Of a stretch of 64,000 bases of DNA, positions 26,862-54,909 are shown piece after piece. Both the position numbers and the translations under genes were made by a program. This DNA is from Candidatus Cloacimonadales bacterium. GTDB taxonomy: Bacteria > Cloacimonadota > Cloacimonadia > Cloacimonadales > DAONDQ01. The DNA is taken from contig OY759316.1 of assembly GCA_963662275.1 (NCBI GenBank), forward strand, positions 3,168,001 to 3,232,000, written 5' to 3'. The notes below the pieces were generated by a model. The model was not told where the DNA came from. It was given only the letters and a program-made list of their open reading frames with translations, and ran no database searches. The number at the start of each line of letters is the position of its first letter. Positions within the stretch are counted from its first letter, which is position 1.

Positions 26862-28550
26862 TTAGATGATCTTGGTAATCATATACTTCAAGTATAGAAC
26901 TTTCTTCACTAAGGGATAGATAAAATCAGTCTGCTTAGAGACAACCACTTTATAGAGACCTAGCTGATTAACTCTCTCCGAAATGTGCATATTGATCTTA
27001 CGATAATCCACTTGTCCGGTAAAGCAATTTCGATATAGATATCTATCTCTTGCAGAACGCATCTTTTTCAGAATTCGTACTATTTTTTCAGGATACTCCA
27101 GGGATTCAATCAATTTGATGTTGGTACCCAATTCAGCACGGTAAAGCCTGGTATTCATACTTTTCACAACAATTGCTTCCGGTCTGTAGGCTACGATAGT
27201 ACTTGGTTTATCCTGTTGAAGATTGCAATAGTGGGCTAAACCATAACCGCTGCTGAAAGTCGCACGCAGGACATCGATATCTAAAAATGGAAGATATTGG
27301 TAAAGACCAAGATTCTTGGCAATCATACATATTGGACTGATCTTTTTTGCCGGAAAATAGGCATAAACAAATTGAAGAAATGCCGGATAATTCTTTTTTT
27401 TATTAATATCCTTGAATTCATGACCAAATGCTTTCGCTAAATAGCTTTCCATATTCTTTTTAAAAACAGGGTCAAAATCTCCGAAATACTGATCCATTGC
27501 TTGTGATAATGTCAGTTTATTTGACAATACATCCTGGAGTGGTTGAGAAACACATGCATCAGACAATATTCCTTTAACGAATTCGCTGCCGAAATATCCT
27601 TCAAATATGGTTGCAGGAGTAGGTATGTTCTGATAAAAATGAATATCAAGAGTAGAATCAAGCAAGCCATTTGACATGGATAAACCTTCTTGAAGCTCTG
27701 TGTCAAAATTCTCTTCAAAGGATTGAAAGGTGACATAATTGATATCAAGCTTAATCTCTTTTGCTAATTTCTCAACTTTCTGACGTTCTACATATTGTTT
27801 ATCACCCCAGCTATATATTTTTGGCTTCATCTGATATTTCAACAGACATGATAAGATAGTCCGCGAATCCGAGCCGGCAGAGAATGAAATAGCCGCATCA
27901 GATACAGCAATTTTAGCTTTTTCAAAGAATTTTTCATATGCTGTCTGAATACGCAAACTTCCTTCTAAATTAAAAAGCTCCTCATACTTGTTTTGTTCGG
28001 TAATCGTGATCTTTCCTGTTATCAAATCGTAAACCAAAGCCTGGTTCGGCAAAAATACATTAATATCCTTGAATACAGTCTTGGCACCACGTGTAGAATT
28101 AAAAAACAACATTTCATAGAAAGCTTCCAGGTCTTGATCTTTATTCAAAAGCTTGGCTAGATGATAGACATTATTGGAAATGATTATTCTATGATTATCC
28201 ATATAATAAAAATAAGGAAAAATACCCCAGTAATCAGATTTGCATAAGATTTTCTCTGGACTACCATAAACAAAACTTACATAGGGATATGCTTTTACTC
28301 TTCCTAACAAATCAGGTGCATCTATGGTTCTAATAATGTTATTCTCGAGATCAGAAAATGAAAACTGCCGCATATTATAACTAGAAGAGTGGTTAAAATC
28401 TCCATTAGAAACCTCATGCTTAGTATAGATATGACAATTAACAAACTCCCCTTTAAACTCTCTATGATGAGAATATGAAGAATCTATCTGCTCTGTTACA
28501 CAAGTCTCCACATCTTGACATACTTCCAAAATGAAATCATCATTATCCAT
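26862..28550 (-). CDS. Divergent asparagine-synthase (AsnB)-like amidotransferase
   Basis: DYWGIFPYFY (DxxGxxPLY-like), SFSAGSDSR PP-loop, YLPFLD. Confidence 0.65.
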   Translation of the reverse strand: MDNDDFILEVCQDVETCVTEQIDSSYSHHREFKGEFVNCHIYTKHEVSNGDFNHSSSYNMRQFSFSDLENNIIRTIDAPDLLGRVKAYPYVSFVYGSPEKILCKSDYWGIFPYFYYMDNHRIIISNNVYHLAKLLNKDQDLEAFYEMLFFNSTRGAKTVFKDINVFLPNQALVYDLITGKITITEQNKYEELFNLEGSLRIQTAYEKFFEKAKIAVSDAAISFSAGSDSRTILSCLLKYQMKPKIYSWGDKQYVERQKVEKLAKEIKLDINYVTFQSFEENFDTELQEGLSMSNGLLDSTLDIHFYQNIPTPATIFEGYFGSEFVKGILSDACVSQPLQDVLSNKLTLSQAMDQYFGDFDPVFKKNMESYLAKAFGHEFKDINKKKNYPAFLQFVYAYFPAKKISPICMIAKNLGLYQYLPFLDIDVLRATFSSGYGLAHYCNLQQDKPSTIVAYRPEAIVVKSMNTRLYRAELGTNIKLIESLEYPEKIVRILKKMRSARDRYLYRNCFTGQVDYRKINMHISERVNQLGLYKVVVSKQTDFIYPLVKKVLYLKYMITKII

Positions 28551-28876
28551 ACATATTCTCCTTTGTCTCTGTATAGTGCAGCACAGAAGACAAGACTAAT
28601 CATGAAGGTAAACTGATAGTAAAAGAACGAGTAACCTCTTTGTCTTTTTTTGTCAGAAAGCAATCATGCTCACTGATTATACCTTATTTATGAAATAATT
28701 GATCGTGGCAAGAGAAATCTTCAATCTCGATACTCCTGATGATGCTGGTAAAGATAAAATTTAAGATTGTTATTGTGATAAAAAATGAATCAATCCTTTA
28801 GATAAAAAAATTATCTTGACTTATGAATGCTAACTATATTATCCTAAAACTGTGAACTTGAAAAGAAGGAGTTATC

Positions 28877-29752
28877 ATGTTTAATTTTGTTTCTCTGAAA
28901 GTTAAATGCCCGCACTGTGGTGCATCCTTTACGGACGAGGAGCACCTAATCGATAATCTGCCAAGTATGAAGATTTCGGTGAAAATAGGCGGACAAAAAG
29001 GTTCTATCTGGCTCTCATCAATCTATGGAAGTTACAATATCGATTCGGATATCATTGTTAAAGAAAATGAGATTGCCGAATTCTCTTGCTCGCATTGTTC
29101 CCAACCACTAACAAGCCAGGAATTATGTTCCGTTTGCAGCGCTCCTCTAGTTGATTTCAACTTGGAAGAGGGTGGAAAAGTTAGTATTTGTTCACGTGCT
29201 GGTTGTAAAAAACACAATGTTGAATTTGAAGACCTATCAACAGCTCTTGCTCATTTCTATGAGGATTTCTCTTACCGTGGACAAAAAACGCCGGATGTGA
29301 AAGACTCTTTGAATCAGCAAACTTCAAAAGAAGATGATCAACAGGAAAATAAAGCAATCATTGAATCTGGTACATACTTGCATTCATTCTGTCCCTATTG
29401 CAGAAAAAGCCTGAATGATCATGATATGCTCAAATTGAAGATTGAAAAAGGAGACGGAGAAATTGGTTTTCTACTTCTCAGTCCCTATTTAAATGTTTTT
29501 TCTCATAAATCAACGATTCAGCTTCCAGAACAGACTTCTGTAAAAGGAGTAAAATGCTGGCATTGTGACCATAGCCTGAAAGTGGAAGAAGAACCATGCC
29601 CAAAGTGCGGTTCAGAATTGATCAGGGTTCAAGTTGCCACTTTTACGAAAATGGCTGATTTCTATATATGCTCCAAAAAAGGGTGCACCTGGCATGGATT
29701 AAGTGATGAAGATCTGAACAGTATCATTCTCGAAGATAGTGAGGAATGGTAA
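28877..29752 (+). CDS. Cys-rich protein with two tandem copies of an about 110-aa multi-CxxC domain
   Basis: CPHC..LSS.Y..CSHC..CSVC..ICSRAGCKKH and CPYC..LSPY..CWHC..CPKC..ICSKKGCTWH; AAGGAG RBS. Confidence 0.8.
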   Translation: MFNFVSLKVKCPHCGASFTDEEHLIDNLPSMKISVKIGGQKGSIWLSSIYGSYNIDSDIIVKENEIAEFSCSHCSQPLTSQELCSVCSAPLVDFNLEEGGKVSICSRAGCKKHNVEFEDLSTALAHFYEDFSYRGQKTPDVKDSLNQQTSKEDDQQENKAIIESGTYLHSFCPYCRKSLNDHDMLKLKIEKGDGEIGFLLLSPYLNVFSHKSTIQLPEQTSVKGVKCWHCDHSLKVEEEPCPKCGSELIRVQVATFTKMADFYICSKKGCTWHGLSDEDLNSIILEDSEEW

Positions 29753-29753
29753 C

Positions 29754-30578
29754 ATGTTCGAGATTGTACGTAGAGATGAAATGGCAAAAGGTTCTATCAT
29801 TCGCTTTGATATCAGTGCTCCAGCTATCGCCAAGAAAATTAAGGCAGGACAATTTGTCATTTTACGTGTGAATGAGACAGGTGAAAGAATACCTCTAACA
29901 GTTGCTGATGTAGACCCATTTAGTGGTACGATAACACTCATCTTTCAAGTTGTTGGAAAAACGACGGCATTAATGCGGTCATTGAAGGAAGGTGGTTTTA
30001 TTCGGGATGTAGTTGGTCCATTAGGAAGACCGGCTCATATTGAGAAATTCGGTACGGTAGTCGTGATTGGTGGAGGAACAGGAATAGCCATTCTTCATCA
30101 TATCACGAAAGCACTCCAACAGGCAGGGAATAATATCCTGGGTATCATTGGTGCTCGAACGAAAGAGCTGTTGATTTTAGAACATGAGATAGCCTCGATG
30201 TGTGATGATCTTGTTATTACAACGGATGATGGAAGTTATGGTATACAGGGCTTTGTCACTGATCCCCTGAAGAAATGGCTTGATGAGAGAGACGATATCA
30301 AACTTGTCTACGCTATTGGTCCTATCATCATGATGAAAAATATATGCAATTTAACTAAAAAATACAAAATACCTACTATGGTAAGTTTAAATCCGGTCAT
30401 GATCGATGGAACAGGGATGTGTGGCGGATGCCGTGTCAATGTTGACGGCAAAACACAATTCTGTTGTGCTGACGGTCCTGATTTTGATGGTCATAAAGTC
30501 GATTTTATTGAATTGGAAAAGCGTAATTCCATGTATATCAAAGAAGAGAAAGACGCTTTGTTGTATTCTATCCGTTAA
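29754..30578 (+). CDS. nfnA: NfnA-type FAD/NAD-binding [2Fe-2S] subunit (electron-bifurcating transhydrogenase small subunit)
   Basis: AGQFVILR, GERIPLT, GPLG, GGGTG, TDDGSYG, DGTGMCGGCRV..C.DGPDF. Confidence 0.88.
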   Translation: MFEIVRRDEMAKGSIIRFDISAPAIAKKIKAGQFVILRVNETGERIPLTVADVDPFSGTITLIFQVVGKTTALMRSLKEGGFIRDVVGPLGRPAHIEKFGTVVVIGGGTGIAILHHITKALQQAGNNILGIIGARTKELLILEHEIASMCDDLVITTDDGSYGIQGFVTDPLKKWLDERDDIKLVYAIGPIIMMKNICNLTKKYKIPTMVSLNPVMIDGTGMCGGCRVNVDGKTQFCCADGPDFDGHKVDFIELEKRNSMYIKEEKDALLYSIR

Positions 30579-30599
30579 CCTTCGAATCGGAGAGTAACC

Positions 30600-32393
30600 A
30601 TGCTGGATTATGACGTAAAATATCTCAAATATAAGACCTACTTAAATACTTACTGCCCTCACTGTAACAACAGTTTTAATGTAAAGATCAAAGGAAACGA
30701 TATTATCCTTTTTGAAGGTATTTTCAAAGGGCAGGAAATGACTTTGAAATTAAGTCCTTATCTTGATGTCTTTGAAGTGGAAACATCCATTCCTATAAAA
30801 CAGGGCGAAGTCCTTGATGACCTACGCTGTCCGCAATGTAAGACTAGTCTTTTATCAAAAGAAATATCCTGCGGGGAATGTAATTCGCCGGTTGCCAAAA
30901 TCATTATTACTGCTTATTCAAAACTAATACCCTTCTTTATTTGCTTGAAATATGGCTGTGAATGGCATGGTCTTACAAAAGCAGATGAAAGAAAAATCAA
31001 ACTTAAAATACCCAGGCAGGAAATGCCGGAACAGGATCAGAAACTCAGGGCTCATAACTTCCAGGAAGTACCCTATGGGCTGACAACAGAACTGGCTCAA
31101 TTGGAAGCAGGACGTTGTCTGCAATGCGCCACACCGAAATGTGTATTAGGTTGCCCTGTTGGAGTAGATATTCCTTCCTTTATCAAGCTGATTCGGCAGG
31201 ATGATTTTGATGGTGCGGCAAAGAAGATCAAGGAAACCAATATCCTTCCTTCCGTCTGTGGTAGAGTATGTCCACAGGAAGACCAGTGCGAAAAGCACTG
31301 TGTTCTGGGTATACGTGATGAACCGGTTGCCATTGGTAACCTGGAACGCTTTGTTGCTGATTTCGAAAGAAAAATGGATCTTGTGAAACCTCCTGTTGTG
31401 GCAACCCGCAGAAATAAGAAGGTTGCTGTTGTAGGTTCAGGACCTGGCGGTATTACGGTTGCAGGTGATTTGGCTCAACTTGGATATTCTGTGACCATGT
31501 ACGAAGCTCTTCACGAATCGGGAGGCGTACTTGTTTATGGTATTCCTGAATTCAGGCTGCCAAAATCTATTGTAGGATTTGAAATAGACTATCTGCGAAA
31601 ACTGGGTGTCAAGATAGAAGTGAACCAAGTGATCGGTACTCTCTACACTGTTGATGAATTACTGGAGAACTTTGATGCCGTATATCTTGGTGTTGGAGCA
31701 GGACTTCCTAAGTTTATGGGTATTGAAGGTGAAAACCTGTGTAATATCTTCTCTGCCAATGAATACCTGACTCGAATCAATTTAATGAAGGCATATAGAT
31801 TTCCAGAATATGATACACCACTACCCAAAGGTCAGCATGTCGTTGTTATCGGTGGTGGAAACGTAGCCATGGACTGTGCCCGGTGTGCATTGAGAACCAT
31901 CTCAGGGCAAGTGACCATCGTCTATCGCCGTTCACGTAAAGAACTACCTGCCAGACAAGCTGAAACACATCATGCAGAAGAGGAAGGAATCAAGTTCAAG
32001 CTTCTAACCAATCCTGTACGCTTTATTGGTAATGATTTGAATTGGGTGAAAGGCATGGAATGCATCAAGATGGAATTGGGAGAACCGGATGATTCCGGTC
32101 GTCGCAGACCTGAACCTGTCAAGGACTCGAACTTCATCATCGACACAGACCTAGTTATTGTAGCTCTCGGTACTGATCCGAATCCCATCATTTTCAATAC
32201 AACTCCTGACCTGAAGAGAAATCGATGGGGCTATATCGATGTGAATCCTGATACAATGGAAACATCAAAGCCTAACGTCTATGCTGGTGGCGATATTGTC
32301 ACAGGGAGCGCTACTGTCATTTTGGCAATGGGAGCGGGTAGAATAGCAGCACAGGCGATTCATAAGAAGCTTTCCGGAAAAGCTGCTAAGTAA
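30600..32393 (+). CDS. nfnB: NfnB/GltD-like flavo-iron-sulfur subunit with N-terminal Cys-rich extension
   Basis: EAGRCLQC..PKC..GCP, CGRVCPQE.QCE, GSGPGG, YGIPEFRLP, GGGNVAMD, GDIVTGSATVILAMG; follows nfnA. Confidence 0.88.
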   Translation: MLDYDVKYLKYKTYLNTYCPHCNNSFNVKIKGNDIILFEGIFKGQEMTLKLSPYLDVFEVETSIPIKQGEVLDDLRCPQCKTSLLSKEISCGECNSPVAKIIITAYSKLIPFFICLKYGCEWHGLTKADERKIKLKIPRQEMPEQDQKLRAHNFQEVPYGLTTELAQLEAGRCLQCATPKCVLGCPVGVDIPSFIKLIRQDDFDGAAKKIKETNILPSVCGRVCPQEDQCEKHCVLGIRDEPVAIGNLERFVADFERKMDLVKPPVVATRRNKKVAVVGSGPGGITVAGDLAQLGYSVTMYEALHESGGVLVYGIPEFRLPKSIVGFEIDYLRKLGVKIEVNQVIGTLYTVDELLENFDAVYLGVGAGLPKFMGIEGENLCNIFSANEYLTRINLMKAYRFPEYDTPLPKGQHVVVIGGGNVAMDCARCALRTISGQVTIVYRRSRKELPARQAETHHAEEEGIKFKLLTNPVRFIGNDLNWVKGMECIKMELGEPDDSGRRRPEPVKDSNFIIDTDLVIVALGTDPNPIIFNTTPDLKRNRWGYIDVNPDTMETSKPNVYAGGDIVTGSATVILAMGAGRIAAQAIHKKLSGKAAK

Positions 32394-32531
32394 AGTTTAC
32401 TTCGCTGTAGAGTTTATCTCAGGAAACTGCGTCTGCATTAATTGGAGTTTGCATAAAAGCTAAGGTTTTGAGCTTAGAAACTATATTAAGTTCACAATCA
32501 GCTTTTCAAACTCTCCGACACTAAAGTGCCA

Positions 32532-32627
32532 CCTCTCTTTATCCAAAGAGAGGAATGGATAAACAGCATTCTGTCTGATTTCCCTCCCTTTGGATAAAGG
32601 GAGGGATTAAGGGAGAGTTTGATTCTG
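32532..32627. repeat. Pair of CCCTCCCTTT-GGAT-AAAGGGAGGG hairpins (REP-like)
   Basis: Hairpins at 32532-32553 and 32581-32606; second one nearly identical (inverted) to 62590-62634. Confidence 0.75.
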
Positions 32628-32682
32628 CAATTTGAACTCCAAATACTTTAATTTCACGGCACAGAATTCTAAAGAGGTAAAT

Positions 32683-33057
32683 GTGATATATGGTATAGGT
32701 ACTGATTTGATTGAAGTTGAACGGGTAAAAAAGCAAGTGGAAAGTGATAACGGTTTTAAAGAACGTGTCTTCACAGAGGCAGAGATTGCGTACTGTGACA
32801 GTAAACATCATAGATATCAGCATTATGCAGGAAGATTTGCAGCCAAAGAAGCTTTTATGAAGGCTTTGGGGACTGGATGGCAGGGTGGAGTTTCATTCCA
32901 GGATATTGAAATAATCACTACTCCCAATGGAAAACCTGAATTAAAACTGCATGGAAAGACTGCAGAAATAACCGAAGGCAAGTTCATTCAATCTATGTTT
33001 GTTTCTCTTTCCCATTTATCCAGTTTTGCGATGGCAACAGTTGTATTGGAACAGTAA
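32683..33057 (+). CDS. acpS: Holo-[acyl-carrier-protein] synthase
   Basis: GIGTDLIE, VFTEAE, AGRFAAKEAFMKALGTG, VSLSH; GTG start after AGAGG RBS. Confidence 0.95.
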   Translation: MIYGIGTDLIEVERVKKQVESDNGFKERVFTEAEIAYCDSKHHRYQHYAGRFAAKEAFMKALGTGWQGGVSFQDIEIITTPNGKPELKLHGKTAEITEGKFIQSMFVSLSHLSSFAMATVVLEQ

Positions 33058-33060
33058 AGC

Positions 33061-33616
33061 GTGGAGTAAGATGCCGATCCTACTGGTCTGCGTGGAGTAA
33101 GATGCCGATCCTACTGGTCTGCGTGGAGTAGGATGCCGATCCTACTGGTCTGCGTGGAGTAGGATGCCGATCCTACTGGTCTGCGTGGAGTAGGATGCCG
33201 ATCCTACTGGTCTGCGTGGAGTAAGATGCCGATCCTACTGGTCTGCGTGGAGTAAGATGCCGATCCTACTGGTCTGCGTGGAGTAAGATGCCGATCCTAC
33301 TGGTCTGCGTGGAGTAAGATGCCGATCCTACTGGTCTGCGTGGAGTAAGATGCCGATCCTACTGGTCTGCGTGGAGTAGGATGCCGATCCTACTGGTCTG
33401 CGTGGAGTAGGATGCCGATCCTACTGGTCTGCGTGGAGTAGGATGCCGATCCTACTGGTCTGCGTGGAGTAGGATGCCGATCCTACTGGTCTGCGTGGAG
33501 TAGGATGCCGATCCTACTGGTCTGCGTGGAGTAGGATGCCGATCCTACTGGTCTGCGTGGAGTAGGATGCCGATCTTACTGGTCTGCGTGGAGTAGGATG
33601 CCGATCCTACTGGTCT
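33061..33616 (+). repeat. Tandem array of 18 x 31-bp REP units (GTGG-AGTAGGAT-GCCG-ATCCTACT-ggtctgc)
   Basis: Units counted at 33061+31k, k=0-17; invariant linker, no spacers. Confidence 0.97.
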
Positions 33617-33642
33617 TTTTTTAATCTTATTCGGAGGTATTC

Positions 33643-34317
33643 ATGGATAAGGACAACACTATTAGTCAGAATAGTTTACAGTATATTTATCGATCACGAA
33701 ATCTCCCCCATAAATATGATACAGACAAACCTATCTTCATAACTTATCGATTGAAATTTACAATTCCAAATTCTATAAAGGAAGAAATGAATCTTCGAAA
33801 GAAGGAATGGCAAAAAAAATATGCTAGCCTGCCTGAGTCTGAGAAGCCTAATGCGCTAAAACTTAATGAATTAGAAACATTTCGAAGATTCGACGAATTG
33901 CTTCATAAGTCAGATGAAGTTCCAAGACTTCTTCATAGGGTTGATTTAACGAATGTAATAATAGATAACTTTCATTACTTTAACAACCAAAGGTATCAAC
34001 TCCAGGCATTTTGCATTATGCCTAATCATGTACATGTTCTTATTAAACCTCTCAAACAACCTGACGGTGAGGTTTTTTCCTTAGCACATATCAATTACAC
34101 TTGGAAGAGATTCACTTCCAACAAAATAAATAAGATATTGAATAGAACAGGGAGTCTTTGGCAAGATGAGTCTTATGATCATCTTATTCAATCAGACAAT
34201 GAATTCTATGCTACTTTAGAGTATATCATCAACAATCCGATAAAAGCTGGATTAGTTGATCATTGGAAAGATTGGCATGGAACATGGATAAGGGAAGATT
34301 TGAAGAGCAGACAGTAG
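33643..34317 (+). CDS. REP-associated tyrosine transposase (RAYT / TnpA-REP, Y1 HUH)
   Basis: IFITY, CIMPNHVHVL (HUH), LWQDESYDHLI, YIINNPIKAG (catalytic Tyr); flanked by inverted REPs. Confidence 0.93.
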   Translation: MDKDNTISQNSLQYIYRSRNLPHKYDTDKPIFITYRLKFTIPNSIKEEMNLRKKEWQKKYASLPESEKPNALKLNELETFRRFDELLHKSDEVPRLLHRVDLTNVIIDNFHYFNNQRYQLQAFCIMPNHVHVLIKPLKQPDGEVFSLAHINYTWKRFTSNKINKILNRTGSLWQDESYDHLIQSDNEFYATLEYIINNPIKAGLVDHWKDWHGTWIREDLKSRQ

Positions 34318-34406
34318 GATCGGCATCCTACTCCACACTCAGCAGACAGTAGGATCGGCATCCTACTCCACATTCAGCAGACAGTAGGATCGGCATCCTA
34401 CTCCAC
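34306..34406 (-). repeat. Three inverted REP copies, 35-bp period
   Basis: agcagacagtaggatcggcatcctactccac x3; reverse complement of the upstream REP; first copy supplies the RAYT stop codon. Confidence 0.95.
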
Positions 34407-34413
34407 TACATAC

Positions 34414-35604
34414 TTACTTCAATATCCCTAATTCCTTTCCAATCTTCACAAAAGAGCTAATAGCACGATCAAGATGAAATAGGGAATGTGCTGCTGAAAG
34501 CTGAACACGGATGCGTGCTTTCCCCACAGGAACAACTGGATATGTGAATCCAATCACATATATTCCCTCTTCAAGAAGGCGATTCGCCATTTCCACGGCA
34601 AGATTCTCATCATGAATCATAACCGGTACAATCGCAGTATCACTTGGAATAATGTCAAATCCGGCTTCTATCATACCTTTTCGGAAGTAATTAGCGTTTG
34701 TGATGAGATGATTTCTAAAATTAGTTGTTTCAATAAGCATATCAATCACTTTCATGACAGCACCAACTATGGGAGGTGCAATCGTATTGGAAAATATATA
34801 CGGTCTGGAACGTTGTCGTAAATATTCAATGACATCCCTGCTACTGGATATGCAACCACCGGAAGACCCGCCAAGTGCTTTACCAAAAGTAGTTGTGATA
34901 ATATCTACACGTCCTTCAACACCACAATATTCAACAGTACCTCTTCCGGTATCACCGATATAACCCGTTGCATGGGAATCATCCACCAGGACAAGAGAAT
35001 CATACTTTTCTGCAAGATCACAGATTGTTTGAAGATTAGCAATATCTCCATCCATGGAGAAGACACCATCAGTGACGATTAGGCGATACTTCATGTCTTT
35101 CGCCTTAGTTAGGATATCCTCTAATTCTGTCATATCAGCATGTGTATAACGAAATCGCTGCGCTTTGCATAAACGAACACCATCAATGATGGAAGCATGA
35201 TTCAAAGCATCTGAGATGATCGCACAATCTTCATCAAGTAGAGGTTCGAACACTCCACCATTGGCATCAAAGCAGGAAGAATAGAGAATTGTGTCTTCCA
35301 TACCCAGAAACTTGGATACTTTCTTTTCCAGTTGTTTATGTATTTCCTGTGTTCCACAGATGAAACGTACCGAAGCCAAGCCAAATCCCCACTCATCGAG
35401 TGTCTTCTTTACAGCCTTAATGACTTCCGGATGATTTGCCAAGCCCAGGTAATTATTTGCACAGAAATTGATAACTTTTTCACCATCGACCAAGGCAATC
35501 TCTGCCCCTTGAGGTGTACCGAGGATACGTTCAGTTTTGAACATACCTGACGTATTTATTTGATCCAACTGTTTCCTGATATCTCCATGGAATCTTTTAG
35601 ACAT
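34414..35604 (-). CDS. kbl: Glycine C-acetyltransferase (2-amino-3-ketobutyrate CoA ligase)
   Basis: NFCANNYLGL, SVRFICGTQ, SCFDANGG, NHASIIDG, DGVFSMDG, DDSH, TFGKALGG, ARIRVQLSAAH. Confidence 0.92.
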   Translation of the reverse strand: MSKRFHGDIRKQLDQINTSGMFKTERILGTPQGAEIALVDGEKVINFCANNYLGLANHPEVIKAVKKTLDEWGFGLASVRFICGTQEIHKQLEKKVSKFLGMEDTILYSSCFDANGGVFEPLLDEDCAIISDALNHASIIDGVRLCKAQRFRYTHADMTELEDILTKAKDMKYRLIVTDGVFSMDGDIANLQTICDLAEKYDSLVLVDDSHATGYIGDTGRGTVEYCGVEGRVDIITTTFGKALGGSSGGCISSSRDVIEYLRQRSRPYIFSNTIAPPIVGAVMKVIDMLIETTNFRNHLITNANYFRKGMIEAGFDIIPSDTAIVPVMIHDENLAVEMANRLLEEGIYVIGFTYPVVPVGKARIRVQLSAAHSLFHLDRAISSFVKIGKELGILK

Positions 35605-35623
35605 GATAACCTCTTTTTTCTTT

Positions 35624-35776
35624 GTAGAGTAGGATTCCGATCCTACTGAATACTAAACTCATCGTGGAGTAGGATTCCGATCCTACTGAATACTAAACTT
35701 CAGCGTGTTACACTCAGACTCAATTAACTTCTTCACTAATAGTCAACTGTTCAGTAGGATCGGAATCCTACTCCAC
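35624..35776. repeat. REP cluster (two direct, one inverted; TCCG loop variant)
   Basis: gtag/gtgg-agtaggat-tccg-atcctact at 35624 and 35664; inverted copy 35753-35776. Confidence 0.9.
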
Positions 35777-35850
35777 GTTATTGAGACGTCTCAGCGTTTA
35801 CAGTAATTCTGTCAATAAAAACAAGCGCCTTTTCCATCTATGGAAAAAGC

Positions 35851-37711
35851 GAGACTGTTCAAAATTAACCTCCATTTTACGCAGCCTTATTGGTAGTGAC
35901 AGAGAAAAAGTGGTCTAAGTGCGACCAATCCACATTTTCTTGACATATGCGGGAGATATTTAAACTTGCTAAAAGTGATTCCTGACGCATGATTGGTTGA
36001 CCTTTATCGACCAGTTCTTTGAACCAAAGCGAAAACACAAGGTTGCGGGTGGTTTCTTCAGATTTTAGTCCAAATCTACCGGATGTCACCTTCTTGATTT
36101 TGCGGTTCCAGCGTTCAGAGACATTGGAAGTCAAACCTTTGCTGAGGTGTCTCCAATCACTAATGATATTGCTTTTGATGTATTCGGCGGCGGTTGGGGG
36201 AGTAATAGCTGTCAGGCTTGCGATACCCTTTTTCCTTCCGCCCGCCGTTTCTCTTCGGAAAGCTTTCATAATCCTCTTCTTAAAGAACTTGTCCCTGTCT
36301 TCAGGGAGATGACATTGACTGATTCTTTTGAAGAGATTTCGTATCTTATGGAACTTACAGAGTTGGTAATGGACTTTTGGAAACACTGTTTTTCTTGCAA
36401 CTGCTAACGATTTACTGCCATCACTGACAATCAGGGTTGGATCTTTCCTGTAGAGCTGTCTGAAGGTTCTGAAACATGCTTCGAATGATTCTTTCTTTGT
36501 GTCAGGATACAACTCACAAAACAGAGGGATGTGAGTCACAAAATCAACAATACTGATGACATAGTACGGAATACCTTTGATCTTCACATATTTCTCATCA
36601 ATGCTGATCTTTCCGCTCCACTTACCGATTGAGTTCAGAATCAGGCTCTGCAGGTCAGCGATTTCATGCCAGAGATTTGAGACTGTAGCTTTACAGGTGT
36701 TGAGCAGCAAAGCTATCGTCTCGAAGTTCATACCGCTTCCAACCAGGTAATGTACCAGCAGACACAGGTTCTTGCGTTCCAGACTATGGAACGGCTTTGC
36801 ATCGGCGGTTCTATGGGATGTATTGCCTTTAGCAGTCTTCATTTGTTCCAGGAGTCTGTCACAGATAACAGGTGTATTCTGCTGACCGGCAAGCAGTTTC
36901 AGCAGATGTACAGCATCACCGCCTACTGTCTTTTTCAGAAGAAGCTTCTGAGCTTGCTTAACTACAGACAGAGAATTGACCTGAGAAGCATATTTGCAGA
37001 AAGTGGTATAGGACATTTTAAAATCATGATGGCTGATGAACTCCTGATACATGACATTTAAAGGTAAAAGCAGGTTATTGATAACAAAATTCTCGATCTG
37101 AGGAATACACTCCAGCAGGTCAACTTTCCGGCTTAAATATGCCAGGATATCATGACCATGCTGCTCAAACTCTTGCCAGAAATTATGTACATTCCTGCGG
37201 TCTGCGTAGTTAAACAGATCAGCTATTTGCTGAAGTGTAAGGAGGTTGTCTCCGCCTATTCCTACTAATAAGCGTAGAAACGCTATTAAGAACTTGTGGT
37301 TTGATGTTGTCTCAGGCAAAGTGAATGAAAATGGTACGTTAATACTTACATGGTATTGGTTACTTTCATGACTAACACTTACCGCTTCTTGAATTGGAGT
37401 GTTTTTTTGTCATAATATCCTCCCTTTTGTTACCAGGTAACAAATGCCATTGAAGCTATAGCAAAAAACTTGTAAAGAACTATTTTATATGATTTTAACT
37501 ACACATTTAGTCAGAAACGGCTTCGAAACATTACTTATAATCGCGTGTTTTTCAATTTTAGTCAAAAAGCTTAACTTGTGATTTGGTGTCCTTAGCAGAG
37601 CTTATCTGTCAATTCTGGAAGGTATGTTAAATTATGACCGTTTCGACCACTTTTTTCAACTTGCTACTTTCTAACTTATTGAATATTATGAATAACTTCA
37701 TGAACAGTCTC
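35851..37711 (-). mobile_element. Insertion sequence with Mutator/IS256-like DDE transposase, complete
   Basis: Terminal IR GAGACTGTTCA (35851-35861) / TGAACAGTCTC (37701-37711); 8-bp direct repeat GAAAAAGC at 35843-35850 and 37712-37719. Confidence 0.9.
35877..37319 (-). CDS. DDE transposase (CxxH Mutator-like motif); natural start appears frameshifted
   Basis: SIDEKY, IVSDGS, FPKVHYQLCKFHKIRN, TSNVSERWNRKIK; RBS+ATG at 37413 is out of frame by one base. Confidence 0.85.
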   Translation of the reverse strand: MPETTSNHKFLIAFLRLLVGIGGDNLLTLQQIADLFNYADRRNVHNFWQEFEQHGHDILAYLSRKVDLLECIPQIENFVINNLLLPLNVMYQEFISHHDFKMSYTTFCKYASQVNSLSVVKQAQKLLLKKTVGGDAVHLLKLLAGQQNTPVICDRLLEQMKTAKGNTSHRTADAKPFHSLERKNLCLLVHYLVGSGMNFETIALLLNTCKATVSNLWHEIADLQSLILNSIGKWSGKISIDEKYVKIKGIPYYVISIVDFVTHIPLFCELYPDTKKESFEACFRTFRQLYRKDPTLIVSDGSKSLAVARKTVFPKVHYQLCKFHKIRNLFKRISQCHLPEDRDKFFKKRIMKAFRRETAGGRKKGIASLTAITPPTAAEYIKSNIISDWRHLSKGLTSNVSERWNRKIKKVTSGRFGLKSEETTRNLVFSLWFKELVDKGQPIMRQESLLASLNISRICQENVDWSHLDHFFSVTTNKAA

Positions 37712-37757
37712 GAAAAAGCGCTTTAAATGTATTACTGAAGCTTATTCAGTGTAAATA

Positions 37758-39005
37758 TTATGAACTATACATTGCCATGATTTCATTCTTGGTTTTCCCA
37801 AGAATACCATATTTCTTTCCAACTTTAATGAATGCTGCCAGTGCTTTTTCGAGGTGATGCATCTCATGCGCTGCAGAGATCTGGGTACGAATTCTGGCTT
37901 TACCTTGTGGTACAACAGGGAAAAAGAAGCCTATTGCATAGACGCCTTCAGCATAGAGATCAGTTGCAAAGTCCTGTGACAGTTTCGAATCAAATAACAT
38001 CACGGGAACAATGGGAGTATCACCGGGTTGAATGATGAATCCGGCTTCAATGAGACCTTTTCTCCACCAGTTGGCACTGGCTTCCAACTTGTCCCTGCGT
38101 TCAGTTGTCTTGGAAAGGATATCCAAAACCCGAATTACACCGGCAACCACAGGTGGGGCAATAGTGTTTGAGAACAAATATGGACGTGCTTTCTGACGAC
38201 ACATCTCAACCAGTTCCTTCCGTCCGGATACGCATCCGCCGGAAGCACCGCCGAGACCTTTACCGAATGTGGTTGTGATGATGTCTATCTTGCCCATCAC
38301 GCCGCAAAGCTCATGCGTTCCTCTTCCGGTCTTACCGATAAAACCTGATGAATGTGAATCATCAACCAGCAGCATGGCATCATATTTTTCACATAATGCT
38401 ACCATTTCAGCAAGTTTTGCTGTATCGCCATCCATAGAGAAAACGCCATCTGTGATAACAAGCTTGTTGCGTTTGTCAGAATGGAGTTGAAGCTTCTCTT
38501 CCAAATGACCCATATCAGAATGCTTGAATGTATCCTGTACTGCCTTGCATAAGCGAATTCCATCGATCAGGGAAGCATGAACCAGACGATCTGATATCAT
38601 CACATCCTCTTCTGATAATATCGCTTCAAACACACCTGCATTTGCGTCCATACAGGAAGGGAAAAGAATAGTATCTTCAGTACCGAGGAATTCCGTCACT
38701 TTCCTTTCCAGCTCCTTATGTATATCCTGGGTTCCGCAAATGAAACGGACAGAGGACATACCGTACCCGCGGGCATCTAAACCTTCATGAGCAGCTTTGA
38801 CTACTTCAGGATGGCTGGATAATCCAAGATAATTATTAGCACATACATTTATGACTTTCTTCAGAGGGGCACCCGGAGGGAATTCAACTTCAATCTCTGC
38901 ATCCTGTACTGAATGAATGTAACGTTCAACCTTCAAGATACCTGCGTTCTTCAAGGCATCCACTTGTGCAGTATAAGTCGCTCTGACTTTATCGCTATAT
39001 GCCAT
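37758..39005 (-). CDS. Kbl-like alpha-oxoamine synthase (second paralog), next to the ACP gene
   Basis: NVCANNYLGL, SVRFICGTQ, HASLIDG, DDSH, TFGKGLGG; insertion EVEFPPGAPLKK. Confidence 0.88.
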   Translation of the reverse strand: MAYSDKVRATYTAQVDALKNAGILKVERYIHSVQDAEIEVEFPPGAPLKKVINVCANNYLGLSSHPEVVKAAHEGLDARGYGMSSVRFICGTQDIHKELERKVTEFLGTEDTILFPSCMDANAGVFEAILSEEDVMISDRLVHASLIDGIRLCKAVQDTFKHSDMGHLEEKLQLHSDKRNKLVITDGVFSMDGDTAKLAEMVALCEKYDAMLLVDDSHSSGFIGKTGRGTHELCGVMGKIDIITTTFGKGLGGASGGCVSGRKELVEMCRQKARPYLFSNTIAPPVVAGVIRVLDILSKTTERRDKLEASANWWRKGLIEAGFIIQPGDTPIVPVMLFDSKLSQDFATDLYAEGVYAIGFFFPVVPQGKARIRTQISAAHEMHHLEKALAAFIKVGKKYGILGKTKNEIMAMYSS

Positions 39006-39014
39006 TTCTCCTCC

Positions 39015-39263
39015 TTATTTAGCCAGGAATTCCTGAACGAGTTTCACAATTTTAGTTACACTATCAAAAGCTTCAGGGCTGGCTTTCTCATCAGGGATAG
39101 AAATTTTGTATTTGTTTTCCAGGAAGCGTTTCAGGGATACCATCGAGAAAGAATCTACTATACCACCTGAAATGAGTGGCGTATCAAAGCTTATTTCTTC
39201 ATCCGGATCTTCACAATATTCTTTGATCACATAGGCAAGAACGATGTCACGAATTTCTTCCAT
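39015..39263 (-). CDS. Acyl carrier protein (DltC-like)
   Basis: 82 aa, acidic, LISGGIVDSFSMV phosphopantetheine Ser motif, FDSVTKI. Confidence 0.9.
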   Translation of the reverse strand: MEEIRDIVLAYVIKEYCEDPDEEISFDTPLISGGIVDSFSMVSLKRFLENKYKISIPDEKASPEAFDSVTKIVKLVQEFLAK

Positions 39264-39393
39264 AATTAGTTAACTCCTTTATTGTTTTGGTTTTAATCTT
39301 TTGTGGCATAAGATTCCAATCTTATGATAATTAATTCCTTCATTTATTTTGTACTTTTTAATCGTCTTCAATGTTGATGTATGACCAAACTAT

Positions 39394-39423
39394 CCCCCTT
39401 GATAAGGGGGGTAGGGGGGTCAA
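39394..39423. repeat. CCCCCTT-GAT-AAGGGGG hairpin (same family as 1124-1208)
   Basis: cccccttgataaggggggtaggggggtcaa. Confidence 0.75.
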
Positions 39424-39429
39424 CCTGTA

Positions 39430-41133
39430 TTAATCATCTTCAAGTGTAGATATATCACCGATTTCCTCACCCCATTCCTGGGCTTTCAGGACACGGCGCA
39501 TGATCTTACCACTGCGTGTTTTGGGCAAATTAGGCACAAATTCAATCTCTTGAGGCATGGCAAGAGGTGATAACTTCCTGCGAATGAAGTTCATGATATC
39601 CAAATCCATTTCATCACTTGCTTCGAAACCAGGTTTCAGACAGACAAAAGCCTTTACCACTTCCATATTGACGAAGTCAGGTTTGGAAACGACTGCTGAT
39701 TCAGCCACTGCGGGATGTTCCAGCAATGCGGACTCCACTTCGAATGGACTGACCAAATGACCGCCTGTATTGATGATATCATCATCACGACCCACAAACC
39801 AATAGTAGCCGTCCATATCAATGTAAGCTCTATCACCCGGGAGATACCAGCCGTTTTTGAACTTCGCCTGGTAGGTGGCTTCATTATTCCAATAGGTACG
39901 CATCATGGCAGGCCAGCCTGGTTTGAAACCGATCAAGCCGATCTTACCTGTTTCCGTGATCGGTTCAAATGTCTCGGTATCCACAACACAAGCTGTGATT
40001 CCCGGGAATGGTTTACCCATGGAACCTGGCTTTATCTTCATATCGGGTAAATTAGTAATCATGATGGAACCGGTCTCTGTCTGCCAATAGGAATCATGGA
40101 ATTTTAAACCAAATACCTTATCAGACCAGACTACAGCTTCTGAATTCAATGGTTCACCTACACTGGCTAAATGGCGAAGAGAGGAAAGATCGAAAGTCTT
40201 AATAATGTCGTCACCGGCTTTCATCAGGGAACGAATTGCTGTTGGAGCTGAATACCAGACAGTAATCTTATGCTTTTGAATGAAGCTATACCACGCATCG
40301 GCTGAAAAGCCTATATCATTCACGCATTGTGTCACACCCATTGACCAGGGTCCGATAATACCATAGGAAATACCGGTTACCCAGCCCGGATCGGCGGTGC
40401 ACCAATAAATATCATCATCCTTCAGATCCAATACCCATTTCGTAGTGAGATACTGGGAAATGAGTGAATAATGCACATGCTTCACACCTTTCGGCATGCC
40501 TGTTGTACCTGATGTATAATGTAAAAGAGAGGGAGATTCAGCATGTGTAGGATAAGATTCAAACACATCCACACGTTCTACCTCTTCCATATTGAAGGCG
40601 ACCTCACGTTCCTGCAGAGGGCTTTTCTGATTGTCATCAACAATGATGATATGTCGTAATTCAGGAAGCTTGTCGATGATCTTGCGAAGCTTGCCAACAT
40701 GCTTCTTCTGGGTGAAGACAGCACATGTACCTGCATTCTCCAAACGAACCAATAAAGATTCATCACCGAAGGCAGAGAATAATGGCTGCGCAGCACAGCC
40801 TGCCTTGAGAACTGAAACAACACCGATGTACAGTTCAGGGATTCTATCCATGAAAAGACAAATACGTTCTTCGGGCTTGATTCCTAATTTCTGGATAAAG
40901 GTCGCAACCGTATTACTGAGTTGGCGGATATCATTGTAGGTATACTGTTTGGCTTTCCCTCCAAGTCCTTCCCACTTCAGGGCAAGCTTATCGCCCTTTC
41001 CCTGTTTACAGATTCGATCTGTGCAATACCAGCCGATATTAATGACATTACCAGGCTTGTACTCGAGTTCTTTTTCGGCAATTTCCCAGGAAAAGTTTTT
41101 GAGTCTTTCGTCGTATGATCCAATATTTGACAT
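39430..41133 (-). CDS. acsA: Acetate--CoA ligase-like AMP-forming adenylation enzyme
   Basis: YTSGTTGMPKG, WCTADPGWVTG, SVGEPLN, WQTETG, GRDDD, LPKTRSGKIMRR. Confidence 0.85.
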   Translation of the reverse strand: MSNIGSYDERLKNFSWEIAEKELEYKPGNVINIGWYCTDRICKQGKGDKLALKWEGLGGKAKQYTYNDIRQLSNTVATFIQKLGIKPEERICLFMDRIPELYIGVVSVLKAGCAAQPLFSAFGDESLLVRLENAGTCAVFTQKKHVGKLRKIIDKLPELRHIIIVDDNQKSPLQEREVAFNMEEVERVDVFESYPTHAESPSLLHYTSGTTGMPKGVKHVHYSLISQYLTTKWVLDLKDDDIYWCTADPGWVTGISYGIIGPWSMGVTQCVNDIGFSADAWYSFIQKHKITVWYSAPTAIRSLMKAGDDIIKTFDLSSLRHLASVGEPLNSEAVVWSDKVFGLKFHDSYWQTETGSIMITNLPDMKIKPGSMGKPFPGITACVVDTETFEPITETGKIGLIGFKPGWPAMMRTYWNNEATYQAKFKNGWYLPGDRAYIDMDGYYWFVGRDDDIINTGGHLVSPFEVESALLEHPAVAESAVVSKPDFVNMEVVKAFVCLKPGFEASDEMDLDIMNFIRRKLSPLAMPQEIEFVPNLPKTRSGKIMRRVLKAQEWGEEIGDISTLEDD

Positions 41134-41262
41134 ATCTTACACCCCTCTATCTTATTCAGTGATAATCAGAACCAAGATGAATTCTACTCATAAATTGTTT
41201 ATAAATTTGAATGTGATGATGTTTTTGTCAATAACAATTTAGAAGGCAATGAAGAAGGGGGT

Positions 41263-41494
41263 TAGGTGCTAGGTTCTAGGTGTTAGGTTCTAGTCCAGAA
41301 CAGCGCATGCGGAATATTAGCAATATTTGAACATATTCTTGATACCAGCTTCTATAGTAGTCATTCTTAAATTAATAACGACTATGCTTGGGCGTACGAG
41401 CTGTCACAGTGCAGATGTCGGTAGTCATCCTTGCGAGTGCGAGGATCCATCTTCTCCTCTTGAACCTAGCACCTGGAACCTAGCACCTGGAACC
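41263..41494. repeat. Inverted 7-bp tandem arrays (TAGGTGC/TAGGTTC ... GCACCTA/GAACCTA)
   Basis: 41263-41293 and inverted 41462-41494. Confidence 0.8.
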
Positions 41495-41500
41495 TTTTAC

Positions 41501-43051
41501 TCACTTCACCAACATCATCTTCCTAACTTCCTGCTTCCCTGATGAAGAAATACGACAGAAATACAAGCTGGAAGCTACTGCATTACCATTGTCATCTTTC
41601 CCATTCCAAGTCACAGAATGCTGTCCAGCTATTTGGTTTTCATTGATAAGAGTCTTAACATGCTGACCTTTGATGTTATAGACCGATAGTTCTGTTAGCC
41701 CTTTTACAGGCAGGCTGTAGGAGATAGTTGTGGTGGGATTGAAGGGGTTTGGGTAGTTGGAAATAGAAACCAAGGATGATGAGGGAATGACGGTATCATC
41801 CGTTGTTGGTGTATTATTCTGAGCCAAATATGGATAGCCACCATTCAAATTGGCGTTGATTGACCACATGTCATCGGTTCCATTTGCGGTTTCACTAATA
41901 AAGTCCCATCCCGCATTCAGATATGTGCTGATGTCCTGCATTTGGGTTGTGGTGCAGCCAGTACCCCCGGCACTTGTGGATTGGCCACTGGTTTCGGTGT
42001 TCCAGAAGCTGCTAATAACTGATTCATTGCTACTATACCCCCCAAGTCCGCCAGTGCTGACTAGCCCAGTAACATTACCCGTGGCGTAGCAGTTGCTTAT
42101 GATACCTGTGTTACCCCCCACCAGACCACCGGTGTTTTGATAGCCACTTACACTACCGGTGGCATAGCAGTTGTCTATCGTGCCGTAGTTAGAACCCACC
42201 AGACCGCCGGCAGAGTTGTGTGCGTAAGGGCATGTAACACTACCTGTTGCGTAGCAGTTGCTGATTGTGCTCCCTTCGCTTAACCCCACTAGACCGCCAG
42301 TTTCACCAGAATGACCAGTAACACTGCAACTGGAGTTGCAGTTGTTGATTGTACTGTAAGTGTTATCCCCTGACAGACCACCGGTGTAAACATAGCCACT
42401 TACGCTACCGATGGTGTAGCAGTTGCTTATAGTACCACTATAGTTCTGCCCCACCAGTCCGCCAGTGTAATTTGTACCGGTCACTGTTCCTGTGGCGTAG
42501 CAGTTGTCTATGGATCCGTGGTTATTACCCACCAGTCCGCCGGTGCGCGTGTCTCTACCAATAATACTACCAGTGACATGGCAGTTGTTTATGGCACTAC
42601 CTTGGTTATCCCCCACCAGACCGCCGGTGTAATTATCGCCATGCACTTCCAAATTGTTCAATCCAAGATTAGCTAAGATGGCCTCATTTGTATTTCCAAA
42701 CATGCCTTGTAAGCTTATATATGGTCTATTAATGAATAAATTTAAAATTATATGTCCCTGACCATCGTAGTTGCCGGTAAAATTGACGTAATCAGTGCTG
42801 GAGTTATAATAACCAATCGGATTCCATCCTTGTCCCCAATTCCAATTCCGAGTATCGTTGGCATCAATATCGGCAGTCTGGACAAACCAACTACCCCAAC
42901 TGCTGCTGTTCTCACTGATCCATTGAAGATTATCCAAACTGGCTACATGATATGGGCTGGCTTCGGTTCCTTCACCAGCAGGCTGAACCGCCACCGCACT
43001 TAAAGTACATACACAGAAAATAAAAATCAAGGCCAAGCAAACTGCCTTCAA
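41501..43051 (-). CDS. Secreted GLUG-repeat protein with C-terminal T9SS-like/FlgD-Ig sorting domain
   Basis: Repeated TGGLVG.N..G.I.NCYATG.V; FTGNYDGQGH; NYPNPFNPTTTISY..WNGKDDNG..KMMLVK. Confidence 0.9.
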   Translation of the reverse strand: MKAVCLALIFIFCVCTLSAVAVQPAGEGTEASPYHVASLDNLQWISENSSSWGSWFVQTADIDANDTRNWNWGQGWNPIGYYNSSTDYVNFTGNYDGQGHIILNLFINRPYISLQGMFGNTNEAILANLGLNNLEVHGDNYTGGLVGDNQGSAINNCHVTGSIIGRDTRTGGLVGNNHGSIDNCYATGTVTGTNYTGGLVGQNYSGTISNCYTIGSVSGYVYTGGLSGDNTYSTINNCNSSCSVTGHSGETGGLVGLSEGSTISNCYATGSVTCPYAHNSAGGLVGSNYGTIDNCYATGSVSGYQNTGGLVGGNTGIISNCYATGNVTGLVSTGGLGGYSSNESVISSFWNTETSGQSTSAGGTGCTTTQMQDISTYLNAGWDFISETANGTDDMWSINANLNGGYPYLAQNNTPTTDDTVIPSSSLVSISNYPNPFNPTTTISYSLPVKGLTELSVYNIKGQHVKTLINENQIAGQHSVTWNGKDDNGNAVASSLYFCRISSSGKQEVRKMMLVK

Positions 43052-54327: not shown

Positions 54328-54909
54328 TTATTTATTGATGAGGGGTTTACCAAAAGGTAATACAACTCTGCCAGCCTGGTCATTAATGATATTCGCCAAC
54401 ATCATATACATGGCTGCCGCGGCACAGACAATTAACTCATAACCTGCAACAACATTCCATTTAGGATCACCGAAATGACCGATAACTAATAGCATGAAAC
54501 CAAGCAGAAGAAGGAAAATGGTTAGAGACATCGCAGTGTGTATTCTTAATGAAGCTAAAAACATCACAAAAGTATAGATCATCCAGGCAAAAAGGTACCA
54601 GCCAATATCAGTAGTACTTGCCTTATATACTTCGAAGTGATTCAGTAGAAATATTATTCCCAATCCAATCCAGAAACTGCCGTAAGATACAAAAGCACTG
54701 TATCCGAAATTATTGCCCATCTTCTGTTCCTGAAAACCAGCTATCATTTGCGCCAAGCCACCGTAGATCAAACCAACAGCAAGGACAGGACCAATTCCGC
54801 ATAAACCGATGTTATGAAACTGTAAAATCAGAGTTGTCAGGGAGAAACCTGCAAGACCAACGACTGCAGGATTGGCGTATTTTCTTTCTTCCACGTTGAG
54901 CTCCTTCAT
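54328..54909 (-). CDS. satP: Acetate uptake transporter, GPR1/FUN34/YaaH (SatP) family
   Basis: ANPAVVGLAGF, YGGLAQ, NNFG..AF.SYG.FW. Confidence 0.88.
   Translation of the reverse strand: MKELNVEERKYANPAVVGLAGFSLTTLILQFHNIGLCGIGPVLAVGLIYGGLAQMIAGFQEQKMGNNFGYSAFVSYGSFWIGLGIIFLLNHFEVYKASTTDIGWYLFAWMIYTFVMFLASLRIHTAMSLTIFLLLLGFMLLVIGHFGDPKWNVVAGYELIVCAAAAMYMMLANIINDQAGRVVLPFGKPLINK

Follow-up and report, generated by a model that had tools for sequence, protein, structure and literature searches.

What does a stand-alone carrier protein do between an acetate-activating ligase and a glycine C-acetyltransferase? The question arises from a 64,000-nucleotide stretch of the genome of a Candidatus Cloacimonadales bacterium (assembly GCA_963662275.1, contig OY759316.1, positions 3,168,001 to 3,232,000; hereafter the window), in which three genes follow one another on the reverse strand. 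These are acs, encoding an acetate-type adenylating ligase of 567 amino acids (39430 to 41133), acp, encoding a carrier protein of 82 amino acids with a DSFS serine motif (39015 to 39263), and kbl1, encoding a divergent paralogue of glycine C-acetyltransferase (Kbl; 37758 to 39005), which begins 9 bases after the acp stop codon. A preliminary description of this DNA had suggested that a carrier-bound acetyl group is either condensed with glycine or received from the cleavage of 2-amino-3-oxobutyrate derived from threonine. We consider it likely, by sequence and by analogy, that the ligase loads the carrier protein and that Kbl1 uses it in that form. The best explanation of the module as a whole, to which we assign a probability of roughly 0.45, would be an ATP-driven synthesis of threonine from acetate and glycine on a private carrier.

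Conservation was assessed in two sets, which may overlap. One comprised 61 genomes of the same order, including the present one; the other comprised the best 80 loci kept from a scan of a one-genome-per-species collection for the carrier motif, for which about 1,100 stretches were estimated. The 80 loci bear the labels Bacteroidales, Aminicenantes, Delongbacteria, Zixibacteria, KSB1, Ignavibacteriales, Acidobacteria, Cloacimonadota and others. Within the order, the carrier protein (at least 67% identity) and Kbl1 (at least 78%) co-occurred in the identical 17 of the 61 genomes, and the next Kbl matches after the Kbl1 orthologues reached at most 62% identity. The remaining 44 genomes have canonical Kbls without such a carrier. 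In all 16 other relatives with the module, acs lies upstream and kbl1 downstream of acp, and in four of the 16 a block of unrelated genes separates acs from acp. Among the 80 loci, the Kbl1 motif DRLVHAS follows the carrier gene in 77, that is, in every locus that could be assessed, as in the other three the sequence breaks off at a contig end (two loci) or an N gap (one locus). The P-loop motif of the ligase was present in 71 loci and one further ligase was recognized by open reading frame and family search, giving 72 of 74 assessable loci, since a contig end cuts off the ligase side in six. The two exceptions are L089, whose ligase orthologue lies on another contig, and L126, for which none was found. 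The preliminary description had tied its proposal to conserved linkage, and for acs-acp-kbl1 the survey bore this out. In four loci of one genus (L040, L041, L042 and L044), several paralogous lipoprotein-like genes in a row are inserted between acs and acp, and kbl1 is followed by a gene for an MFS monocarboxylate transporter.

Other genes keep looser company with these three. Exact-motif scans of the 80 loci, which yield lower bounds, detected the phosphopantetheinyl transferase gene acpS in at least 33, a canonical Kbl in at least 36, a SatP acetate transporter in at least 24 (often directly beside the module) and threonine dehydrogenase (Tdh) in at least 11. Among the 16 relatives, a tdh gene lies within the locus in 11, and a sodium/solute symporter with DUF4212 lies beside the module in two. 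Two layouts recur: tdh-acpS-acs-acp-kbl1, with or without a transporter gene at the end, in the relatives, and a co-oriented kbl2-acpS-acs-acp-kbl1, with or without satP, in Bacteroidales and Aminicenantes. In the window, satP (54328 to 54909, reverse strand; NF038013, SatP/AceTr family) lies 13 kb upstream of the module. We conclude that acs-acp-kbl1 is the conserved unit and that acpS, an acetate transporter and a second Kbl are frequent optional neighbours; the linkage of the second Kbl and acpS noted at this locus stood, and both proved far commoner than the single locus suggests. We further profiled 57 module-bearing genomes (the 17 of the order and 40 diverse ones), many of which are incomplete and the related ones not independent. 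Both Kbls were detected in 29 of the 40 diverse genomes (26, plus three by motif), Kbl1 alone in 10 and no match in one; among the 17 of the order, 14 have both and three only Kbl1.

The ligase exceeds the cut-off of NF003313 (PRK04319), with 754.5 bits against 729, and is 69-84% identical to 11 aligned orthologues. Its closest solved structure is 9g79 (E 4.5e-164), which we take to be Bacillus subtilis AcsA; the two align over their whole length, including the acetate-pocket and lysine motifs. The acyl-pocket motifs agree with those of acetyl-CoA synthetases (CoA, coenzyme A). The loop that carries R191 and R194 in Salmonella Acs (PMC13404658) is missing in the ligase and equally in the CoA-type relative 9g79, and its absence is therefore uninformative on CoA use. 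What distinguishes this ligase from PRK04319-type acetyl-CoA synthetases is its attachment to a carrier protein in nearly all assessable loci, and we regard it as a predicted acetyl-carrier ligase.

The carrier protein matches PF00550 weakly. Its motif GG-x-VDSFSMVSLK is invariant, Ser38 is invariant in 30 sequences, and identity is 77-90% among 29 aligned homologues and 68-85% across phyla. It had been described as DltC-like, a label that did not survive comparison: DltC models fell far below cut-off, and the nearest solved chains are the stand-alone (type II) peptidyl carriers 6cxt, PigG and PltL. Stand-alone peptidyl carriers are loaded by adenylating enzymes. A Dlt system was also rejected for the locus as a whole, on the same DltC scores and the absence of an MBOAT gene from it. 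The phosphopantetheine serine in the carrier and the phosphopantetheinyl transferase AcpS in the genome are both present, and the modification itself is predicted. The acpS gene (TIGR00516; forward strand) probably starts with GTG at 32683 and ends at 33057 (124 amino acids; open reading frame 32632-33057), as judged from orthologue length and an upstream GAGGT. It is the sole PF01648 match in the genome and so probably serves as the housekeeping enzyme too. Elsewhere acpS mostly lies directly upstream of acs; here it has been relocated behind nfnB.

The second glycine C-acetyltransferase gene in the window, kbl2 (34414 to 35604, reverse strand), is of canonical type, and its product shares 57% identity with Kbl1. 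Both proteins exceed the TIGR01822 cut-off of 493 bits (Kbl1, 561.7; Kbl2, 619.7), and Kbl2 outscores Kbl1 against solved Kbls. Kbl1 retains H143, S190, D215, H218, K249 and R373 as in canonical Kbl, including the pyridoxal phosphate lysine, and a fold search with its model returned the Kbl fold at TM 0.88-0.90. Specific to Kbl1, and shared by its 10 aligned orthologues, are the motifs DRLVHAS and FPSCMDANAG, an insertion of five residues and a helix at the C-terminus; FPSCMDANAG stands near the cofactor site where canonical Kbl has YSSxFDANGG. The canonical strand QRFRY is replaced by [VMI][QHT]D[TS][FI] in Kbl1 and in 10 of 10 aligned close orthologues, a change that removes two basic residues. 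At every one of these signature sites Kbl2 keeps the canonical sequence (LNHAS, QRFRY), and it is likely an ordinary CoA-dependent enzyme.

The altered strand would fall where ALAS contacts CoA. In ALAS, Lys156 binds the adenosine of CoA and is the first residue of the strand that follows the catalytic His (PMC4615937). The Kbl1 model, with a helix at 144-152 and a strand at 156-160, is in similar register to ALAS (helix 143-150, strand 156-159). The position equivalent to Lys156, located by its distance from the catalytic His and by modelled secondary structure rather than by superposition, is Arg in Kbl2 and Gln, His or Thr in Kbl1. This loss of basic residues at the predicted CoA-adenosine site would fit a switch away from CoA, and the changed signature is suggestive, indirect support for the idea of a carrier-dependent Kbl. 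Two second Kbls in other loci (L055:8252-9538 and L050:5565-6818) combine the canonical CoA-site motif with a Kbl1-like loop insertion, the former also with a C-terminal extension; they are possibly intermediates or chimeras.

Two known systems frame what such a carrier might do. In the AasR/AcpR/SPT triad of Caulobacter crescentus and other Rhodobacteria, a ligase, a dedicated carrier and an alpha-oxoamine synthase co-occur; AasR acylates only AcpR and not CoA, SPT prefers acyl-AcpR, and the proposed purpose is to steer the acid away from the CoA pool (PMC9386255). The same co-occurrence and linkage of ligase, carrier and synthase is seen in acs-acp-kbl1. Unlike the triad, the ligase here is acetate-type rather than long-chain, the partner reductase is Tdh, lipid genes are not conserved, and Kbl1, which scores as a Kbl, reaches at most 306.8 bits on the SPT models (cut-offs 500-670). 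The sphingolipid triad proper was accordingly rejected, on the acetate type of the ligase and a synthase below all three SPT cut-offs; on our best reading by analogy, the module would be a C2/glycine counterpart of that triad. The second system is the Tdh-Kbl pathway (TIGR01822; solved Kbls 1fc4, 7bxp, 7v58 and 3tqx; SDR Tdh 2yy7 and relatives), with which the module shares fold, catalytic residues and the Tdh partner. Canonical Kbl, however, works with CoA and lacks an adjoining carrier or ligase, and Kbl1 departs from it in the strand at the CoA site, in an inserted loop segment and in a helix at the C-terminus. Of the 40 diverse genomes, 37 have a Tdh of one type or the other (SDR type in 31, zinc type above cut-off in six of the remaining nine). 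We regard Tdh as the real redox partner; it is the most constant partner outside the module. The preliminary description overlooked it because it is encoded elsewhere in this genome, at C1:1976194-1977147 (SDR type, 68% identity to the operon type).

The steps that we propose are as follows. AcpS would place phosphopantetheine on the carrier, which the ligase would charge with acetate, converting ATP to AMP and pyrophosphate. Kbl1 would condense the carrier-bound acetyl group with glycine to give 2-amino-3-oxobutyrate, which threonine dehydrogenase would reduce to threonine; Nfn is not needed in this scheme. Acetate kinase was found in all 17 module-bearing genomes of the order and in 38 of the 40 diverse ones (55 of 57), which makes reversal of the ligase unnecessary for ATP. 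A CoA-acylating ligase would, we infer, cycle against acetate kinase. The private carrier would separate an ATP-driven acetyl pool from the acetyl-CoA that these fermenters drain through acetate kinase, and such a separate pool could avoid a futile cycle and push the uphill condensation. The neighbouring transporters, of acetate and monocarboxylate families, likewise count for synthesis. We found no homoserine dehydrogenase in this complete genome or in 38 of the 57 profiled. The formation of threonine from glycine and acetyl-CoA by Kbl and Tdh is already known (PMC11906848), and no description of the module was found in the full-text literature of open papers; what is new here is a private carrier with its own ligase for the Kbl reaction. 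Acetate kinase also excluded the module as a substitute for that enzyme.

Several observations weigh against this proposal. The ligase carries no sequence sign of lost CoA use, and His or Thr at the position of Lys156 is tolerated in ALAS (PMC4615937), so that the CoA-site signature of Kbl1 is only suggestive. Kbl2, present at the locus in at least 36 of 80 cases, would re-cleave the product. No soluble pyrophosphatase was found in 42 of the 57 module-bearing genomes, which weakens the forward pull. Homoserine dehydrogenase is present in 19 of the 57 and in none of 24 tested genomes among the 44 lacking the module, so that module-bearing genomes are not set apart by lacking it, and the view that the module strictly replaces the aspartate route to threonine was not supported. 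Finally, a variant without ligase, in G054 (99% complete), points to carrier loading by cleavage. There, a Kbl1-like gene (58% identity, DRLVHAS kept), a different carrier (41%) adjoining it and an MBOAT gene form a co-oriented run (L048:7594-11443), and no Acs-family match was found in the genome. The Kbl1 signature thus travels with carriers, G054 being a single case, and its Kbl may load an acetyl carrier for the membrane O-acyltransferase.

The same parts could run in the opposite direction. Tdh would then oxidise threonine, Kbl1 would cleave 2-amino-3-oxobutyrate onto the carrier, the ligase would make ATP from AMP and pyrophosphate and SatP would export the acetate, amounting to an undescribed substrate-level phosphorylation in hundreds of uncultured anaerobe species of many phyla. 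We regard breakdown of this kind as possible but doubtful. Tdh and Kbl together are usually catabolic, tdh is often the first gene of the operon, Kbl1 is the only Kbl-class enzyme in 10 of the 40 diverse genomes and three of the 17 of the order, and the G054 variant has no ligase. A membrane pyrophosphatase was present in 5 of 5 module-bearing genomes tested and most of those profiled have no soluble match, as in Syntrophus aciditrophicus (PMC4992975). However, the present genome has a soluble family II match, and 5 of 5 genomes lacking the module likewise gave no family I match, so that its lack looks like a lineage trait. In the present genome, a DHHA2 (family II pyrophosphatase-like) gene lies directly before a membrane pyrophosphatase gene (G000:C1:3381990-3384695), and there are three membrane pyrophosphatase matches in all. 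The precedent for a reversed ligase invoked in the preliminary description, Acs1 of S. aciditrophicus (PMC4992975 and PMC13404658), fits only in part: its host too is poor in soluble pyrophosphatase, but that enzyme acts on acetyl-CoA in a host without acetate kinase, which nearly all the genomes profiled here possess. The loop that sets the ATP-forming bias of Syntrophus Acs, with G196/T197 at its start (PMC13404658), is present there and deleted in this ligase subfamily, and direction is thus unreadable from these residues. A further consideration is thermodynamic. A reversed module would stack two uphill steps.

The remaining alternatives are weaker. The co-oriented kbl2-acpS-acs-acp-kbl1(-satP) arrangement of Bacteroidales and Aminicenantes, and the presence of both Kbls in most genomes profiled (29 of 40 and 14 of 17), could reflect a relay in which the acetyl group passes between carrier and CoA via 2-amino-3-oxobutyrate and glycine is recycled, and three of 40 genomes have no Tdh above cut-off. 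This would be a roundabout way to convert acetate and acetyl-CoA into each other, and we think it unlikely, as Kbl2 was not found in 10 of 40 and three of 17 genomes (incompleteness cuts both ways) and Tdh, in 37 of 40, is the more constant partner. The module might also consist of a normal acetyl-CoA synthetase and a normal Kbl, the carrier serving another purpose or none, since ligase and Kbl1 pass the curated cut-offs of ordinary families and the ligase resembles a CoA-type enzyme over its whole length; we give this little credence because the two strictly accompany and adjoin a carrier that keeps 68-85% identity across phyla and is frequently linked to acpS, and because the canonical Kbls of 44 relatives have no such carrier. 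The divergence of Kbl1 near the cofactor site, and the MBOAT beside the G054 variant, would allow for another product, such as one from another short acid or another amino acid, aminoacetone formed by decarboxylation, or an acetyl-carrier for an acyltransferase. This is improbable given that the acyl-pocket motifs are of acetyl-CoA synthetase type and that the loci read have no conserved tailoring, lipid or MBOAT neighbour, whereas Tdh and acetate transporters are conserved there. Least credible of all would be that the unit of a Cys-rich protein and NfnAB serves the pathway as its dedicated redox arm. It adjoins the module in G000 (the present genome), G001 and G040, acpS ends the nfn unit in G000 and G001, and the unit occurs in 6 of 17 module-bearing genomes of the order against 2 of the other 44, kin not being independent. 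It was not found in the other 11 of the 17, however, and the NfnB motif occurs in at least 3 of the 80 loci, all labelled Cloacimonadota, which contradicts it as an obligate link; the unit is also convergent with the module, and by established chemistry no core step uses NADPH or ferredoxin.

If carrier dependence is true, a protein thiol takes the place of CoA in an acetyl reaction of central metabolism. The module would then either make threonine from acetate and glycine without recourse to the aspartate pathway or offer a new means of recovering ATP from pyrophosphate. The organisms that have it are common digester and sediment anaerobes, mostly of uncultured groups. Annotation pipelines label the three genes acetyl-CoA synthetase, ACP and Kbl, which leaves the module invisible in metabolic models of these anaerobes.

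The surroundings of the module in the window are largely local. All ten genes of the preliminary description were confirmed at their positions, but its suggestion that Nfn balances redox in the pathway failed on the counts given above: the Nfn unit is separate from the module and merely a local neighbour. It consists, on the forward strand, of a gene for a zinc-ribbon-like Cys-rich protein with two repeats and no named family (28877 to 29752), nfnA (29739 to 30578; NF004862 above cut-off, PF10418) and nfnB (30600 to 32393), a flavoprotein gene with an extra N-terminal Cys-rich domain. The Cys-rich protein and extended NfnB were found together in 8 of the 61 genomes, and in the three module-bearing genomes with the unit other than G000, G001 and G040 they lie on other contigs. 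NfnA and NfnB are encoded side by side as a small subunit (FNR-like, 2Fe-2S) and a large one (GltD-like) with the domain sets of Nfn, and residues 136-594 of NfnB match the solved large subunits 4ylf and 5jca; the two genes thus resemble NfnAB, for which bifurcation would be predicted. Unlike those enzymes, the large subunit has an additional N-terminal domain of about 130 amino acids (window 30600-31010), residues 13-136 of which match the Cys-rich protein, and a gene with two repeats of the same domain (internal repeat 27% identity) lies upstream. The Cys-rich protein has 677 homologues, and its Atlas matches are unnamed zinc-ribbon clusters; no convincing solved relative was found by profile (one match, E 0.004) or by whole two-domain fold (best Z 3.5). 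In each of the 7 genomes that have a complete or almost complete copy, it lies beside an extended NfnB, and the unit is possibly an Nfn variant with a third subunit.

The two convergent gene units of the preliminary description stand as described, but are separated by elements that it did not list. From 33059 to 34406 there are 18 tandem copies of a 31-bp palindromic repeat, a transposase gene on the forward strand (33643-34317) and three further copies, a REP-like passenger array; additional copies lie at 35619-35777, ahead of kbl2. The REP-type tyrosine transposase has 12 tblastn matches in the genome. Between kbl1 and kbl2 lies an insertion sequence with a DDE transposase gene (35877 to 37319, reverse strand). 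Searching the genome by tblastn gave 39 full-length matches to this transposase, of which 34 show 99.5% identity or more. The protein fell below every cut-off for insertion sequence families, the best models being IS256 and IS6. In G001, of the same genus, both the insertion sequence and the repeat array are absent and the gap between kbl1 and kbl2 is 134 bases, and the insertion sequence is a recent insertion outside the module. An Rfam search of 28000-42000 gave no match at E 0.01, and a scan for promoters and terminators stayed near the shuffled background (38 against 30.9 +/- 5.4 and 13 against 9.3 +/- 2.9). The locus had been described as free of fatty-acid genes; this is correct locally, but elsewhere in the genome fabF adjoins a canonical carrier. 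With regard to threonine and glycine metabolism elsewhere in the genome, the only GcvT match falls below the family cut-off, and glycine decarboxylase P subunits are encoded at G000:C1:2626191-2627171 and 3147099-3149334. A sulfhydrylase-like gene, thrC and a proposed homoserine kinase gene (TIGR02535) are adjacent at L130:3804-7937 (G000:C1, about 2712800-2716900), possibly providing threonine from a methionine or homoserine source.

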